Assembly: GCA_963665405.2 (NCBI GenBank)
Contig: OY762261.2
Coordinates: 1,241,944 to 1,273,943, forward strand
DNA from: Dehalococcoidia bacterium
GTDB lineage: Bacteria > Chloroflexota > Dehalococcoidia > Lucifugimonadales > G963665405
Direction of reading: 5' to 3'
DNA: 32,000 bases
Part shown: piece after piece, positions 10,823 through 25,765 of the stretch
Layout: every line of letters begins with the position of its first letter
Position numbering within the stretch: position 1 is the first letter of the stretch
The notes under the pieces: model-generated
The model's database searches: none
What the model saw: the letters and a program-made list of their open reading frames with translations, nothing else
What the model was told of the DNA's origin: nothing
Translations under genes and position numbers: made by a program

Positions 10823-11725
10823 ATGAAGATCGGCGTGGTCTTTCCGCAGACCGAAATCGGGACAGACCCGATCGCCGTCCGGGACTACGCTCAAGCCGCC
10901 GAGTCGCTGGGCTACGACCACCTGGCGGTCTTCGACCACGTCATCGGGGCCAACGCGGAGAGCCGTCCGGGCTGGACAGGCCCGTACAGCCACGTGAGCA
11001 TGTTCTTCGAGCCGTTCGTCCTGTTCGGCTACCTCGCCGGCCTAACCGAGAGTATCGAGCTGGTCACCAGCATCCTCATACTCCCGCAGCGGCAGACCGT
11101 ACTGGCGGCCAAGCAGGCCGCTACCGCCGACCTGCTGTGCGATGGCCGGCTGCGGCTCGGAATGGGAGTCGGCTGGAACCCGGTCGAGTTCGAGGCACTC
11201 GGCGAAGATTTCTCAGACCGCGGAGCGCGGTGCGTCGAGCAGATCGAGCTTCTGAGGGCGCTCTGGACGCAGGAGCTGGTTACCTTCGAAGGACGGTGGC
11301 ACAAGGTGACCGACGCGGGCCTCAATCCGCTGCCGGTTCAGCGTCCGATACCGATCTGGATCGGCGGCGGCGCGGACGCCGTTCTTCGGCGGGTCGCGCG
11401 GCTGGCGGACGGCTGGTTCGCCAACACCAGCGTTCGAGCGCCCCACGTCACCGGGATTCCGCCGCTGTTCCCCGACGATCAGGGCCGGGCCACCATTGCG
11501 AGGCTGCACGGTTACGTTCGAGATGCCGGCCGCGATCCGGCGAAGCTCGGGATCGAGTGCCGCATCGAGGTGATGGACCGGACCCCCGAGGAGGCCGCCG
11601 AGGATGTGGCGATGTGGGCGGACTTCGGCGCCACACACGTCCAGCTCGGCACCATGCGGGCCGGTCTCAAGTCGCCGGACCAGCACATCGACGCCGTCCG
11701 CCGGTTCAAGGAGGCGCTTTCTTGA
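10823..11725 (+). CDS. Luciferase-like monooxygenase family, probable F420-dependent oxidoreductase (paralog 1)
   Basis: MKIGVVFPQTEIGTDP..VRDYAQAAESLGYDHL.VFDHV is the pattern of the Rv2161c-type LLM family as I recall it. An SD (ggaggga) lies upstream. Confidence 0.8.
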   Translation: MKIGVVFPQTEIGTDPIAVRDYAQAAESLGYDHLAVFDHVIGANAESRPGWTGPYSHVSMFFEPFVLFGYLAGLTESIELVTSILILPQRQTVLAAKQAATADLLCDGRLRLGMGVGWNPVEFEALGEDFSDRGARCVEQIELLRALWTQELVTFEGRWHKVTDAGLNPLPVQRPIPIWIGGGADAVLRRVARLADGWFANTSVRAPHVTGIPPLFPDDQGRATIARLHGYVRDAGRDPAKLGIECRIEVMDRTPEEAAEDVAMWADFGATHVQLGTMRAGLKSPDQHIDAVRRFKEALS

Positions 11726-11774
11726 GCCGGGCCGGGGCCGGCGGATCCCTCCAGGCGCGAAGGAGAGAACGTCA

Positions 11775-12650
11775 GTGAGAATCGGAGTCGTCTTCCCACA
11801 GACCGAGATAACCGCCGACCCGGCCGCCGTTCGCGATTTCGCGCAGGCCGCGGAGGGCCTTGGGTTCGACCATCTGCTCGTCTACGACCATGTGCTGGGG
11901 GCGAAACCCTCCAAGGACCGGCAGAGCGGGGTGTACACTCACAACGACATGTTCCACGAGGTCTTCGTGATGCTGGGATTCATCGCCGGATTCACCAGCC
12001 GCATCGAGCTGGCGACCGGCATCCTGGTCCTCCCCCAACGACAGACGGCGTTGGCCGCGAAGCAGGCCGCGGAGGTGGACGTGCTGAGCGGCGGCCGGAT
12101 GAGACTGGGGATAGGCGTTGGCTGGAACCCCGTCGAGTTCGGAGCCCTCGGCGAGGATTTCTCTGATCGTGGGGCGCGGTGCGCCGAGCAGATCGAGCTT
12201 CTGAGGGCGCTCTGGACTCAGGAGCTGGTGACTTTCGAAGGACGGTGGCACAAGGTGACCGACGCGGGCCTTAACCCGCTGCCGGTTCAGCGCCCGATAC
12301 CCATCTGGATCGGCGGCGGAGCCGAGCAGACCCTGAGCAGGATTGGACGCCTCGGCGACGGCTGGATATACCCCGGATACGCACCCCGGCCCGACGACGA
12401 GGCTCGACGGAAGCTCGACACCATCGGCAAGCACGCCGACGAGGCCGGCCGGGACCGGGGTCAGATAGGCCTCGAAAAAGTCTTCGGCCTGGCCGAAGGG
12501 CCGCTCGACGAGCTGGCCGGCAACATGGACGCCTGGAAGCAGGTAGGAGCGACTCACGTATCGGTGAGCACCATGGGGGCGGGCCTCCGCTCGCCGGACG
12601 AGCACATCGAGGCGATCCGGCGAATCAAGGGCGCCGTCCAAGGGGTCTGA
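11775..12650 (+). CDS. Luciferase-like monooxygenase family, probable F420-dependent oxidoreductase (paralog 2)
   Basis: The GTG start at 11775 (VRIGVVFPQTEITADP...) is preceded by an aaggagag SD. The gene is collinear with paralog 1. The ORF-track N-terminal extension from 11604 overlaps paralog 1 and is rejected. Confidence 0.8.
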   Translation: MRIGVVFPQTEITADPAAVRDFAQAAEGLGFDHLLVYDHVLGAKPSKDRQSGVYTHNDMFHEVFVMLGFIAGFTSRIELATGILVLPQRQTALAAKQAAEVDVLSGGRMRLGIGVGWNPVEFGALGEDFSDRGARCAEQIELLRALWTQELVTFEGRWHKVTDAGLNPLPVQRPIPIWIGGGAEQTLSRIGRLGDGWIYPGYAPRPDDEARRKLDTIGKHADEAGRDRGQIGLEKVFGLAEGPLDELAGNMDAWKQVGATHVSVSTMGAGLRSPDEHIEAIRRIKGAVQGV

Positions 12651-19873: not shown

Positions 19874-20119
19874 CTACTTTCGTGCCTGCCGGGCCCTCCT
19901 GGCCTGAGGGCTCTCGCGGTCCCAGCCGGAGCCCTGGGTCGAGTTCTTGAACTCGTTCCGTTGCCCGCACAGCTTGCACGTGCCCTGACTCGTCGGCCCG
20001 TTAGGGCTGTCTATGAGCCAGTGATGCTTACATTCGATCAGCAGCTCCTGGGCTTCACTCAATGGCCGTCCCCTCTCCTCACGGTGTGCTTTCGGTGCCG
20101 TGTCTTGATGCCGACCCAT
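19874..20119 (-). CDS. Small hypothetical protein with CxHH...CxxC zinc-ribbon-like motif
   Basis: 81 aa, with ECKHHWLIDSPNGPTSQGTCKLCGQRNEF and a basic C-terminus. It has high GC3 and an SD-like gggag upstream. I cannot name a family. Confidence 0.45.
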   Translation of the reverse strand: MGRHQDTAPKAHREERGRPLSEAQELLIECKHHWLIDSPNGPTSQGTCKLCGQRNEFKNSTQGSGWDRESPQARRARQARK

Positions 20120-21589: not shown

Positions 21590-22273
21590 GTGGTATCGTA
21601 TTGCCCAGAATCCGATCAGGTTCGGGAGGCCCTGAGCGCCCCCATGGAAACGCTTGGAACCCCAGAGGTCGTAGTCCAGCGGCTACCGCTATACGTCAGG
21701 GCGCTGACGCAGCTGCAGTCGGAGAGCAAGCTGGTGGTCAGCTCCCAGCAGCTCGGCAGCCGGCTCCAGATGACCCCCGCTCAGATCAGGAAGGACTTGA
21801 GCTACTTTGGAAGATTCGGAAAGCAGGGCAGAGGCTACCACGTAGAGTTTCTGCTGGCAGAGCTGCGCCAGATCCTCGGCATCGATCGGAAGTGGAACGC
21901 ATGCGTAGTGGGGTTGGGGCGGCTGGGTCGAGCTATCGTCAACTACGCGGGGTTCGCACCGGAGGGTTTCCGCATCGTTGCCGTGTTCGACAACGACCCG
22001 GAGCAGATCGGTCAGACGATCGGCGAGCTGACCGTCCAGCCCACAAGCAGGCTGGGCCTGGCTGTCCAGGAGCACGATATCAGTATCGCGATCGTCGCGG
22101 TTCCCGCCACCGCGGCCCAGGCGGTCATCGACCAGGTGGTCAGGGCTCGTGTGCGGGGGATTCTCAACTACGCGCCGACAGCGCCTCACGTACCGCCGGG
22201 GGTGGTGCTGAGCAGCATCGACCCGGTGCTGTCGCTCCAGTCGATGACCTACTACCTGCTTCGTGGCGGCTAG
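21590..22273 (+). CDS. rex: Redox-sensing transcriptional repressor Rex
   Basis: The winged-helix part (RLPLYVRAL...QIRKDLSYFG.FGK.G.GY) plus a Rossmann domain (VGLGRLGRAIVNY). An alternative start is ATG 21644. Confidence 0.9.
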   Translation: MVSYCPESDQVREALSAPMETLGTPEVVVQRLPLYVRALTQLQSESKLVVSSQQLGSRLQMTPAQIRKDLSYFGRFGKQGRGYHVEFLLAELRQILGIDRKWNACVVGLGRLGRAIVNYAGFAPEGFRIVAVFDNDPEQIGQTIGELTVQPTSRLGLAVQEHDISIAIVAVPATAAQAVIDQVVRARVRGILNYAPTAPHVPPGVVLSSIDPVLSLQSMTYYLLRGG

Positions 22274-22315
22274 TTTTCTCGACAGGGGCCGTTGGGGCGC
22301 TGGTGATCGAGGACC

Positions 22316-22744
22316 CTATCCTGCGCCGGGGGGCGGCCCGGTCCGGCGAGTGCGCCTGCGCCGGGAGACCAGCAGACGAGCCTGCGACCTCCTGATAGAT
22401 GCCAGAGCCCGCTCCAGATCCATTGCTGCTGGAGCCGCGGTGACCTTCTCCTGCGCCCTCTTGAGGGCCGCCTCCGCACGCTCCTCGTCGATGTCCTCGG
22501 CATACTCGGCGGTGTCGGCGAGGACGGTGATTTTGTTCCCCAGCACCTCGAGGAACCCGCCTGTGACAGCTACGTAGCTGTCTTCCCCATCCTTGCCGAC
22601 GCGTAGCTCGCCGGGCTTCAGCACGGTCAGGAGAGGGGCGTGGCGAGGCAGCACCGTGAGCTCTCCGAGCATCCCGGGCACGACTACCTTGTCCACCTCT
22701 TCCGAGTAGACCTGTTTCTCAGCGGTTACGATCTCAAGATGCAT
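22316..22744 (-). CDS. atpC: F-type ATP synthase epsilon subunit
   Basis: MHLEIVTAEKQVYSEEVDKVVVPG..GELTVLPRHAPLLT.LKPGELRV...GGFLEV. It is separated from atpD by the inserted cassette. Confidence 0.9.
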   Translation of the reverse strand: MHLEIVTAEKQVYSEEVDKVVVPGMLGELTVLPRHAPLLTVLKPGELRVGKDGEDSYVAVTGGFLEVLGNKITVLADTAEYAEDIDEERAEAALKRAQEKVTAAPAAMDLERALASIRRSQARLLVSRRRRTRRTGPPPGAG

Positions 22745-22760
22745 AGGCTCTTCCTGTCGA

Positions 22761-23468
22761 TTATTTTATGCTCATGGCCAACTGCCTGACTCTCTCTGGT
22801 GGCCTCGATGCAGCATCTTCCAATGCCCTACTGAGATCACTCTGACGTTTCAATGGGATCGCCGACGCTTGCAGGAGCTTTCGATTGCCCTCGCGTCCGG
22901 CCATCTGCTTCGAGTATGCGATAGCCCAAAGCGGCTTCCCCTGGCGCACACATTCAAGGGCGGCGTTGATAGTGCCACCAGTTTCTCGAGCCTCAACCAC
23001 AAACACCCCCGAAGACAAGCCGACTATCAACTTATTCCGCTCCATAGCCCGCCACGACTTCCACACTGCTTCGGGCTCAAACATTGAGACCGCTAGGAAG
23101 TTCCGCGTTAGATCAGCGCTTGGCCTGAGTTCCCGTATTAGCCTAAACGCGTTTACCCCCTCAGGAAGGACGGCGATTGTAGCTCCCCCGGCCTCAAGCG
23201 CCCCCTTGTGAGCCTGTCGGTCAACCCCACGAGCATAGCCACTGATCACGACGAGACCCTGTCTTGTGGCTTCGCATCCGAACTTAAACGCATACGTCAA
23301 CGCTTCAACTGACGCGTCGCGAGACCCGCAGATGCCTATCCCCTGTCTACTCAACAAATCTACGTTCCCGACAGCAAACAACTGGGCGCCAGCCAGTAGG
23401 TTTCTCAGACCCTCTGGATATTTTGAATGGGTCGGCGGAATAACAGAATACTCCGGGGTCATTGCCAT
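22761..23468 (-). CDS. Stand-alone DprA/Smf-like Rossmann-fold (SLOG superfamily) protein
   Basis: GICGSRDAS, VVISGYARGVDRQAHKGALEAGGATIAVLPEGV, and ERNKLIVGLSSGVFVVEARETGGT match the DprA core. It lacks the N-terminal SAM and C-terminal winged-helix extensions (235 aa). The start ATGGCAATGA overlaps the stop of the upstream gene. GC is lower than in the flanks. Confidence 0.75.
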   Translation of the reverse strand: MAMTPEYSVIPPTHSKYPEGLRNLLAGAQLFAVGNVDLLSRQGIGICGSRDASVEALTYAFKFGCEATRQGLVVISGYARGVDRQAHKGALEAGGATIAVLPEGVNAFRLIRELRPSADLTRNFLAVSMFEPEAVWKSWRAMERNKLIVGLSSGVFVVEARETGGTINAALECVRQGKPLWAIAYSKQMAGREGNRKLLQASAIPLKRQSDLSRALEDAASRPPERVRQLAMSIK

Positions 23469-24331
23469 CGCTCCATCGACAGGTTGAGCCCTCCCCTAGC
23501 GAACCTCGCGTCTTTCGCTGCGGTCAATCCAAAGACTCTGCTGGCGCCGGCTTCGTGCAGAGCTCGGCCGACTTCCCTAATCGTACCACCCGAACCAATC
23601 GTGTCGTCGATGATGAGTACGCTGACACCCGACTGGAGCGGTTCTACCTCCACGCTATTGGCCACCCGACTGGCCGACGCGTCCTCGCTCTCAGTCTCAC
23701 CGAGTTCCTTTTGCGGACCAGTCTGCCTAGTCTTCCGGGCTCGCAGAAGCCGTAGGCCGAGTGTATCTGCGATTTCTTGCGTCCACACCCCGGCGAGATC
23801 AGGCGTGCTGGCGACCGACTTTGGCGCTGCAACTATGCAGTCGACGTGCCTCAACCTCGGATGCTGCGACACAAAAGTCTCCAACTTGCCTCGGAGGGCC
23901 ATCATCGCGGCTTGCTCACGTTGGTATTTGGCTCGATGGATGAGGTTCCCTAGAGCTGCTTGCTGACGTTCCCCGTCCTCGAACGTCGTGTATGGGCCCA
24001 ACGCGTAACAATCCTCCACAGGCGGGTACAGATTGACGAATATGACCGAGCTCAACAGTTCGAGTAAACCCCTAAGTTGGGACTCGTGCGTTACACCCGA
24101 GAGAGTAAACGTCCGACCAGACCACGACAACTCGGTAGAGACTGACTGAGTGAATCCTGACCCTTTCAGTACGTCTTCGAGATTCACTTGTCCTTCAATG
24201 CTTAGTTCGAGTTGGTACTCACCCGGGCCTGTCCGAGTCAAACCATAGTTATGAAAGCAGCCGCAAAGAGGCATATCCACCAGAACGCATGTGCTATACT
24301 GCATGATCTCAGGATTCGGGCGGACTGTCAA
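23459..24331 (-). CDS. ComF/GntX-like phosphoribosyltransferase-domain protein with uncharacterised N-terminal domain
   Basis: The C-terminal PRPP loop VSVLIIDDTIGSGGTIREVGRALHEAGA and ComF-like spacing (HRAKYQ...VDCIVAAPKS...RKTRQTGPQKEL). About 140 N-terminal aa are unassigned (CVLVDMPLCGCFH). The start is ambiguous: TTG 24331 or ATG 24304. Confidence 0.7.
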   Translation of the reverse strand: MTVRPNPEIMQYSTCVLVDMPLCGCFHNYGLTRTGPGEYQLELSIEGQVNLEDVLKGSGFTQSVSTELSWSGRTFTLSGVTHESQLRGLLELLSSVIFVNLYPPVEDCYALGPYTTFEDGERQQAALGNLIHRAKYQREQAAMMALRGKLETFVSQHPRLRHVDCIVAAPKSVASTPDLAGVWTQEIADTLGLRLLRARKTRQTGPQKELGETESEDASASRVANSVEVEPLQSGVSVLIIDDTIGSGGTIREVGRALHEAGASRVFGLTAAKDARFARGGLNLSMERWQ

Positions 24332-24352
24332 GCGCGGACCGAGCCGCCGGCC

Positions 24353-25765
<1,413 letters not shown>

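Follow-up and report, generated by a model that had tools for sequence, protein, structure and literature searches.

Genes in the atpD-atpC spacer

The DNA analysed here, a stretch of 32,000 nucleotides from contig OY762261.2 of an uncultured Dehalococcoidia bacterium (hereafter the window), carries within its ATP synthase (atp) operon a pair of genes, g1 and g2, which together fill the spacer between atpD and atpC. The first is predicted to encode a phosphoribosyltransferase (PRTase) domain preceded by an orphan N-terminal domain, and the second a minimal DprA-like protein. Judged by their profile matches, the two genes belong with the PsyrTA (RqlHI)/ShosTA family. Both are co-directional and located on the minus strand (Table 1). 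The open reading frames (ORFs) bear out the original prediction of two coupled minus-strand genes overlapping at ATGGCAATGA, with atpD and atpC as neighbours and no adjacent helicase or nuclease, while a scan of the 32-kb window identified no helicase, nuclease or defence island around g1-g2. The TGA stop codon of g1 occupies positions 23459-23461, g2 may start at either ATG 23468 or ATG 23462, and an overlap of 4-10 nt is retained at nearly all homologous loci.

The start of g1 is placed at the ATG at 24274, since every homologue begins with MPxCGCFH. This motif forms the N-terminus of 21/21 g1 homologues (208-287 aa; alignment of 22 family members), and the ATG at 24274 is preceded by GGTGGA and opens a protein beginning with MPLCGCFH. 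On these grounds both ATG 24304 and TTG 24331 were ruled out as start codons; the latter, from which g1 had originally been read, furthermore lies at the first base of the -35 hexamer TTGACA.

Table 1. Coordinates of the inserted segment, its genes and sequence elements, and its flanking genes in the window
Feature	Position	Strand	Description
Whole inserted segment	22745..24352	-	1,608 nt, atpD stop to atpC start
g1, putative toxin: orphan N-terminal domain + PRTase	23459..24274	-	271 aa; homologue alignment, PF00156
g1 N-terminal domain, aa 1-88	24011..24274	-	Predicted beta-rich; profile search and model
PRPP-binding loop VLIIDDTIGSGGT of g1	23582..23620	-	Read from sequence
g2, minimal DprA-like putative antitoxin	22761..23468	-	235 aa (233 aa from ATG 23462); PF02481
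g1 stop/g2 start overlap ATGGCAATGA	23459..23468	-	ORF reading; translational coupling
Promoter-like site TTGACA-17-(TGn)GATCAT	24303..24331	-	Consensus match, extended -10
Operator-like palindrome GCACATGCGTTC	24283..24294	-	One mismatch from GAAC-N4-GTTC; between -10 box and start codon
g2-atpC junction tcgacaggaagagcct	22745..22760	-	16 nt; AGGAAG Shine-Dalgarno-like motif
atpD, F1 beta subunit, upstream flank	24353..25750	-	ORF and synteny
atpC, F1 epsilon subunit, downstream flank	22316..22744	-	ORF and synteny

Domains of the g1 and g2 proteins

Comparison against Pfam identified both domains that had been anticipated, namely PF00156 in g1 and PF02481 in g2. The PF00156 match of g1 (Bitscore: 33.5; cut-off: 26.3) includes the phosphoribosyl pyrophosphate (PRPP)-binding loop VLIIDDTIGSGGT, which is intact, as claimed in the original prediction, and of which the DD and SGGT residues are invariant in the family alignment. 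Among the PADLOC models, g1 is matched by PsyrT (Bitscore: 50.2; model positions 537-684 of 689), covering the C-terminal PRTase part only, and by ShosT (Bitscore: 21.8), again limited to the PRTase part.

The AlphaFold2 model of g1 (predicted local distance difference test (pLDDT): 88.5; predicted template modelling (pTM) score: 0.88) comprises a beta-rich domain followed by a PRTase fold. Comparison of the whole model using Foldseek recovered PurR, ShosT (8zvb/c/d), adenine phosphoribosyltransferase (APRT) and ComF (7p0h), all with low TM-scores, with ShosT 8zvb among the top matches. The N-terminal domain is predicted to consist of two hairpins, two helices and one further strand, and has a pLDDT of 81 when modelled alone. 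Its fold has no significant match in the PDB, where the best match is the GyrA tower domain (e-value: 0.15; TM-score: 0.5), or among the viral structures of BFVD. A profile of this domain matched only 35 of 1.84 billion representative proteins; in 35/35 matches it is found at the protein N-terminus, the full-length proteins being 235-295 aa in size and the others shorter fragments. Where ~140 unassigned residues had been described, the model thus places a discrete orphan fold of ~90 aa. The Cys/His cluster reported for this region had likewise been misread: as g1 begins at ATG 24274, the 'CVLVD' part of the cluster falls outside the protein, and the Cys/His set conserved in the alignment is C4, C6, H8 and C89, a possible metal site. 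No match to g1 was found in either the phage or the plasmid collection.

The g2 protein is matched by PF02481 across residues 7-204 of 235 (Bitscore: 145.5), as well as by PF18306 (Bitscore: 38) and TIGR00725 (Bitscore: 36). Pfam detects the DprA core only, with no SAM (sterile alpha motif) or winged-helix domain in g2, in agreement with the original description of a bare DprA Rossmann core. Of all profiles tried, the best is PADLOC PsyrA (Bitscore: 169.4; e-value: 3e-50; model positions 95-307 of 398), while ShosA is matched across model positions 79-294 of 303 (Bitscore: 118.2). Sequence matches in the PDB include DprA (3uqz; 2e-18), the best, and ShosA (9vzo; 6e-8). The PsyrA and PsyrT scores (169 and 50 bits) uphold the link to PsyrTA/RqlHI that had been drawn in the original prediction. 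The g2 family is far larger than that of g1, with 332 homologues at an e-value of 1e-20 or lower; among the 120 listed, sizes range from 198 to 250 aa and nearly all are 227-245 aa. Plasmid relatives of g2 share less than 35% identity with it and are uninformative. A helix-turn-helix (HTH) domain is found in neither g1 nor g2.

Promoter, LexA-type box and read-through into atpC

The cassette carries its own promoter-like site, which agrees with the consensus at 10/12 positions and is the only such site in positions 22200-24600 of the window (mean in shuffled sequences: 0.3). The distance from the atpD stop codon to the g1 ATG is 65-76 nt, and the layout of this region is conserved across homologues: TTGAC(A) at -55 to -59, a TAnAAT-like -10 box, GAAC-N4(AT-rich)-GTTC at -20 to -27 and a GGTG-type ribosome-binding site. 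In 16/22 distinct homologous upstream regions, including that of the non-atp locus L107 (compared loci are numbered with the prefix L), a TTGAC motif precedes the g1 ATG by 55-59 nt. The palindrome GAAC-N4-GTTC is perfect in seven of the 22 regions and has a single mismatch in seven more, always at 20-27 nt from the ATG; the window copy, GCACATGCGTTC, has one mismatch and lies 20 nt from the g1 ATG. Across the 811 kb of compared DNA, unique perfect boxes number only 17, seven of them at g1 promoters, a strong enrichment. Both elements accompany the cassette at L107, and are missing from the loci downstream of dnaN described below and from the L018/L020/L022 group.

GAAC-N4-GTTC is the LexA motif of B. 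subtilis and other Gram-positive bacteria (PMC3323433). A conserved host repressor is a likelier ligand than either cassette protein, since the box does not change as g1 and g2 diverge, and both proteins lack an HTH domain. Host LexA probably binds the operator, and the cassette would then be inducible by DNA damage. The LexA of Dehalococcoides reportedly binds the same motif; the 811 kb of compared DNA contains neither lexA nor recA. Rex, the gene of which adjoins the operon, was also considered as the ligand and ruled out, as the half-site spacing of the Rex operator (TGTGAA-N4-TTCACA) does not fit GAAC-N4-GTTC. A perfect copy of the palindrome (GGAACCTCTGTTCT) was also observed upstream of a DUF503 gene beside rex in two related genomes (L004:9149 and L010:12107).

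At its other end, the cassette runs into atpC. In the homologues, 0-17 nt separate the g2 stop codon from the start of atpC (16 nt in the window), and as there is no terminator between g2 and atpC, the latter would be expressed through the cassette.

Distribution and exchange of the cassette

The g1 homologue set comprised 22 clusters and 17 loci from species-representative genomes, all of them from Dehalococcoidia/Chloroflexota metagenome-assembled genomes (MAGs). As the original prediction had called for, adjacent homologous pairs were collected: g1 and g2 recur as a unit at >25 loci, and this atp site is occupied in >20 Dehalococcoidia assemblies. The order atpD-g1-g2-atpC, with rex convergent downstream, is shared by 15/17 genomes and by each of the long contigs inspected. 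Elsewhere, g1-g2 directly follow dnaN in two genomes (L019 and L021) and CO-dehydrogenase-type genes in one. In the two dnaN loci (L019:6788-9445 and L021:6643-9308), DinB_2 and DnaJ genes come next, on the opposite strand; neither copy has the cassette promoter or box, and g1 is shorter, at 247 aa, with a g2 of 197 aa in L021.

The pair is foreign DNA by its composition. The segment has a GC content of 0.53-0.58, against 0.63-0.68 in its flanks, while third-position GC content (GC3) is 0.62 in g1 and 0.58 in g2, against 0.78-0.89 in atpA, atpG, atpD and atpC. To survey empty sites, metagenomes were scanned with an atpC profile and the best 80 loci were examined. Sixty-three of these 80 are empty, with an atpD-atpC distance of 51-212 nt, and g2 is present at only one of the 80. 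The empty sites include those of the closest relatives of the window, L033 (atpD 92% identical) and L040, L037 and L044 (86-88%); in the occupied genomes atpD is only 77-78% identical to that of the window. In a neighbor-joining tree of atpD, occupied sites are dispersed over at least seven separate positions among the empty ones.

Sliding nucleotide identity between related genomes places sharp edges around the exchanged parts. In L013 and L015 the flanks are 95-100% identical and g2 98-100%, while g1 is 57-63% identical; in L012 and L016 the flanks are ~92% and the whole pair 45-68% identical, the breaks coinciding with the stop codon of atpD and the start of atpC; and in L020 and L022 the flanks are 93-97% and g1 ~50-55% identical. 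The cassette is thus present or absent among close relatives, with its alleles swapped between sharp edges, and the empty-site survey, the identity plots and the atpD tree together rule out strict vertical inheritance. No target-site duplications or terminal inverted repeats were found at the insert edges and no integrase is present, which rules out insertion of the transposon or integron type. The alleles are probably exchanged by homologous recombination through the conserved atpD/atpC flanks.

Asymmetric conservation of g1 and g2

The two genes differ in how well they are conserved, with a mean pairwise identity of 60% for g2 and 44% for g1, against 63-68% for atpC/atpG. Four loci retain an intact g2 beside a disrupted g1, which has an in-frame stop (a nonsense codon) in L018, is truncated before the PRPP loop in L104, has lost the PRPP loop through a 35-residue deletion in L107 and in L022 has the degenerate sequence DDALESGDT at the loop position. 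Elsewhere the loop is conserved, and purifying selection maintains it in most of the 52 family proteins. In L106, g1 is replaced altogether: the gene that precedes g2 in the atpD-atpC gap (L106:2576-3481) encodes a 301-aa Nmad3 protein (PF18754; e-value: 8e-70) unrelated to g1. No TTGACA or GAAC-N4-GTTC is found upstream of this gene, and neither PADLOC nor PHROGs holds a model for it. The loss or exchange of g1 while g2 is kept is what a toxin-antitoxin pair would be expected to show, and the asymmetry is also consistent with an antitoxin directed at the damage instead of the toxin itself.

The atp operon as a site for alternative cargo

The atpD-atpC gap is a recurrent landing site for selfish or defence cargo in the Dehalococcoidia. 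In this gap, or directly upstream of atpC, are found a Fic/Doc toxin gene preceded by a 69-aa ORF resembling ribbon-helix-helix (RHH) proteins, as assigned by eye (L093); RHH, DUF4258 and MqsA-like proteins (L086); a 74-aa ORF with a PaREP1/HEPN gene (L059); an HNH homing-endonuclease-like gene (L102); and several small ORFs without assignment (L060, L071, L098 and L099). At L104, the g1-g2 cassette forms a tandem array with DUF2283 and a Cys-rich ORF. The preceding atpG-atpD spacer of MAG OZ251500.1 (L018:4750-6482) harbours a complete copy of HEC-01, a PARIS-like candidate defence pair, encoding HEC-01A (AAA_21/AriA-like ATPase; Bitscore: 397) and HEC-01B (DUF4276; Bitscore: 181), and the same genome has a 343-aa HSDR_N/restriction endonuclease-like gene (L018:9635-10666) between g2 and atpC. 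A full-text literature search found no report of toxin-antitoxin or defence cargo in atp operons.

Several further small genes were observed in these spacers. A 124-aa retroviral/gag-type aspartyl-protease-like gene (PF13975; e-value: 3.7e-9) lies between atpG and atpD at L005:4152-4526, with similar atpG-atpD gaps in L009, L013, L014 and L015, all of one Dehalococcoidia lineage. L071:492-812 and L104:2275-2595 share, in the atpD-atpC gap, a 106-aa Cys-rich ORF family (MEFI.RS.RN.PDVVEVRYDC.CGCKPRA...) without a Pfam match. A second small family, of 69-74 aa, is represented by L059:2241-2465, beside the PaREP1/HEPN gene, and L099:4607-4816.

A putative toxin-antitoxin cassette and the alternative explanations

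We hold with moderate confidence that g1-g2 form a horizontally acquired two-gene toxin-antitoxin or abortive-infection cassette of the PsyrTA (RqlHI)/ShosTA family, lodged in the atpD-atpC spacer. The toxin-antitoxin or defence reading offered in the original prediction is supported, and the best profiles of both genes are those of toxin-antitoxin and defence families. ShosTA is itself a helicase-less PRTase and DprA-like pair, for which crystal structures and a proposed mechanism are available (PMC11961720, PMC12961424) and phage defence has been shown experimentally (PMC11961720). The toxicity of ShosT is abolished by DD>AA substitution in its PRPP loop (PMC11961720), and that of RqlH (PsyrT), the PRTase domain of which is genotoxic but insufficient alone, by the D663A substitution (PMC4670107). 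The binding partners of ShosA are single-stranded DNA (ssDNA) and RecA, but not ShosT (PMC11961720, PMC12961424).

By analogy with ShosT and RqlH, the putative toxin g1 would use PRPP to disturb nucleotide or DNA metabolism and so cause replication stress. The orphan N-terminal domain may fill the accessory role of the PsyrT helicase or the ShosT pyrophosphatase domain, in targeting or sensing, possibly by way of a Cys/His metal site. By the same analogy, g2 would not bind the toxin but would bind ssDNA and recruit RecA for damage repair, as a type-IV-like antitoxin, a role that would account for the conservation of g2 where the upstream effector, whether a divergent PRTase allele or Nmad3, is swapped. 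Host LexA on the operator would render the cassette inducible by DNA damage, a phage would unleash the toxicity by curtailing the supply or function of g2, and the cassette would spread by homologous recombination via the very conserved atpD/atpC arms. More tentatively, these features may be joined in one scheme, which we put forward as a possibility more doubtful than the cassette itself: the short DprA-like protein would serve as an effector-agnostic, repair-type antitoxin, directed at a class of DNA or nucleotide damage and not at any one toxin, for interchangeable nucleotide-targeting effectors (PRTase and Nmad3), wired to the SOS repressor and lodged in a hitherto unrecognised type of hotspot, the gaps of the essential atp operon, where its coupling to atpC would make it hard to delete and homologous recombination through the atpD/atpC arms would carry it from one species to another. 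The RecA-loading activity of the cassette itself might aid this spread.

Several observations weigh against the toxin-antitoxin interpretation. The toxin-profile matches are weak and cover the PRTase domain only (ShosT: 21.8 bits; PsyrT: C-terminal 150 residues). The LexA identity of the operator is putative, with one mismatch in the window box and no box at 8/22 loci. Some of the g1 disruptions may be assembly errors in long-read MAGs, and no other defence genes are found within the 32-kb window itself. The persistence of the pair in some lineages and its housekeeping neighbours (atp and dnaN) also fit a domesticated function.

Such a function is the core of the first alternative, in which the pair is a domesticated, non-toxic SOS repair module, with g2 as a LexA-controlled RecA mediator and g1 as a ComFC-like ssDNA-handling protein, recruited into housekeeping operons. 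The conserved LexA-type box and promoter, the housekeeping contexts (the atp operon and, in L019/L021, the position immediately downstream of dnaN) and the conservation of g2, which at 60% is nearly that of atpC/atpG (63-68%), are all compatible with this, as are the binding of ssDNA by ComFC, thought to pass it to DprA (PMC9005727), and the binding of RecA by ShosA (PMC12961424). However, the nearest relatives lack the pair, 63/80 sites are empty and its composition is foreign, while g1 is hypervariable, exchanged between near-identical genomes, repeatedly inactivated with g2 kept and replaceable by the unrelated Nmad3. The same sites furthermore carry toxin-antitoxin and defence cargo, and the best profiles are those of such families rather than the DprA/ComF equivalogs. 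As such, we consider a repair module unlikely.

Somewhat less likely still is a pure addiction or selfish element of no benefit to the host, in which loss of g2 kills and imprecise deletion damages the essential atp operon. The hotspot within an essential operon, the coupling to atpC, the classical toxin-antitoxin cargo at the same site (Doc, DUF4258/DUF2283 and MqsA-like) and the decay of the toxin with retention of the antitoxin would all be expected of such an element. The purifying selection on the PRPP loop in most family proteins speaks against it, as do the fast allele turnover, which resembles diversifying selection on immune genes, the sharing of the operon with HEC-01 defence candidates and the demonstrated role of ShosTA in defence (PMC11961720). 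It differs from the toxin-antitoxin or abortive-infection cassette that we favour in benefit rather than in mechanism.

It is very improbable that g1-g2 are ordinary comFC and dprA competence genes that happen to sit in an atp operon, as the weak similarity that would favour this (GntX/ComF: 19-20 bits; DprA equivalog: 123 bits; 3uqz as the best PDB match of g2) lies far below the NCBIfam cut-offs (19 against 233 and 123 against 191 for TIGR00201 and TIGR00732, respectively, which excludes the canonical comFC/dprA reading raised in the original prediction), g1 lacks the ComFC four-Cys zinc finger (PMC9005727), g2 lacks the SAM and winged-helix domains, and the pair has no com context in the window and is patchy among close relatives. 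Equally improbable is a metabolic accessory of the ATP synthase, in which a purine/adenine salvage PRTase and a LOG-like nucleotide hydrolase would tune the adenylate pool: the pair lies within the atp operon, shares its transcription and is coupled to atpC, the PRTase fold is like that of APRT and g2 touches SLOG/LOG models (PF18306: 38 bits; TIGR00725: 36 bits), but the scores for APRT and the other salvage equivalogs fall well short of the NCBIfam cut-offs, g2 is clearly of the DprA/PsyrA rather than the LOG type, the same pair occurs after dnaN and beside CO-dehydrogenase genes, and the operon lacks the pair in most relatives and carries unrelated selfish cargo in the same gap.

If g1-g2 are a toxin-antitoxin cassette, they would represent a third toxin architecture for the PsyrTA/ShosTA family, with an orphan domain (~35 protein clusters in 1.84 billion representatives) in place of the helicase or pyrophosphatase and a DprA core as the antitoxin, and would provide a compact system in which to ask what the true role of the PRTase domain is and what the accessory domain contributes. 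The constant g2 beside a swapped effector (PRTase alleles or Nmad3) offers a direct way of examining whether, as modelled for ShosA, neutralisation works through repair. An operon that is essential and highly conserved can furthermore act as an integration hotspot for toxin-antitoxin and defence cargo, and since the neighbours at atp-operon sites are housekeeping genes, island-based discovery of defence systems would miss them. The conserved LexA-type box suggests that the family is tied to the DNA-damage response in the Chloroflexota, a phylum for which, to our knowledge, there is almost no experimental defence biology.

Other genes and elements of the window

The remainder of the window encodes housekeeping functions, including holA, an Opp-type ATP-binding cassette (ABC) transporter ATPase, NAD synthase, glycine-cleavage genes, citrate synthase, rex and the atp operon. 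The rex gene (21590-22273, plus strand) is convergent with atpC here and at nearly all related Dehalococcoidia loci, whether occupied or empty, and the atp-rex linkage is conserved. Between a methyltransferase gene and citrate synthase, an 81-aa ORF (19874-20119, minus strand) with a CxH...CxxC pattern and host-like codon bias has a sub-threshold match to DUF5817 (Bitscore: 18) and may encode a small zinc-ribbon protein. Two luciferase-like monooxygenase ORFs (PF00296) in 10823-12650 on the plus strand (10823-11725 and 11604-12650) overlap as listed, and the true start of the second is probably further downstream. No Rfam structured RNA was detected in positions 22000-25000.

Comparison with known systems

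The original prediction had proposed an undescribed minimal variant. Since ShosTA is a characterised system of this kind, the concept of a PRTase and DprA-like pair without a helicase is already known, while the present toxin architecture has not been described. The family being known, what is new here is the orphan accessory domain, the exchange of effectors beside an unchanging DprA-like protein and the location of the hotspot within an operon.

Like ShosTA, g1-g2 consist of an adjacent, co-directional PRTase gene followed by a DprA-like gene, without a helicase, and the PRPP loop of g1 has both aspartates, as far as their presence in the sequence goes. ShosT is, however, a 424-aa protein in which an N-terminal pyrophosphatase-like Rossmann hydrolase domain (residues 1-164) precedes the C-terminal PRTase (PMC11961720), whereas the 271-aa g1 product has an unrelated, predicted beta-rich domain of 90 aa. 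The PRTase part is also much shorter in g1 than in ShosT, with marginal sequence similarity, and the N-terminal extension of ShosA (~80 aa) is absent from g2.

With PsyrTA/RqlHI the pair shares the order of toxin and then antitoxin, with a DprA homologue directly downstream, as well as the best profile matches for both genes, and the aspartates that RqlH needs for genotoxicity occur in the PRPP loop of g1 (PMC4670107). It differs in lacking the RecQ-like helicase, in place of which the 90-aa orphan domain is found, such that g1 is 271 aa in size against ~690 aa. Furthermore, the PsyrA model extends beyond g2 by ~95 residues at its N-terminus and ~90 at its C-terminus, and the g1-g2 cassette is chromosomal, within the atp operon, and bears a LexA-type box.

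ComFC and DprA have the same two folds, which cooperate on ssDNA, and the ComF structure 7p0h and DprA structures are matched in fold and as the best PDB sequence matches, respectively. ComFC has an N-terminal four-Cys zinc finger, and binds ssDNA that it is thought to pass to DprA (PMC9005727), whereas g1 starts with MPxCGCFH and has no CxxC...CxxC finger (PMC9005727). The g1 protein scores 19.3 bits against the TIGR00201 cut-off of 233.55, and 20 against 304 for NF008616, while g2 differs from canonical DprA in scoring 123.5 bits against the TIGR00732 cut-off of 191.15 and 103 against 495 for NF008007.

The site itself resembles the core-gene-flanked integration or defence hotspots, where two-gene defence systems of the PARIS/HEC-01 type occur, in that a single site holds alternative cargo in different genomes, here PRTase-DprA, Nmad3-DprA, Doc, HEPN, HNH or HEC-01, without an integrase and with cargo edges that abut the conserved flanking genes. 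Unlike these hotspots, it lies inside an essential, co-transcribed operon, in the atpG-atpD and atpD-atpC spacers, where the cargo translationally abuts atpC.

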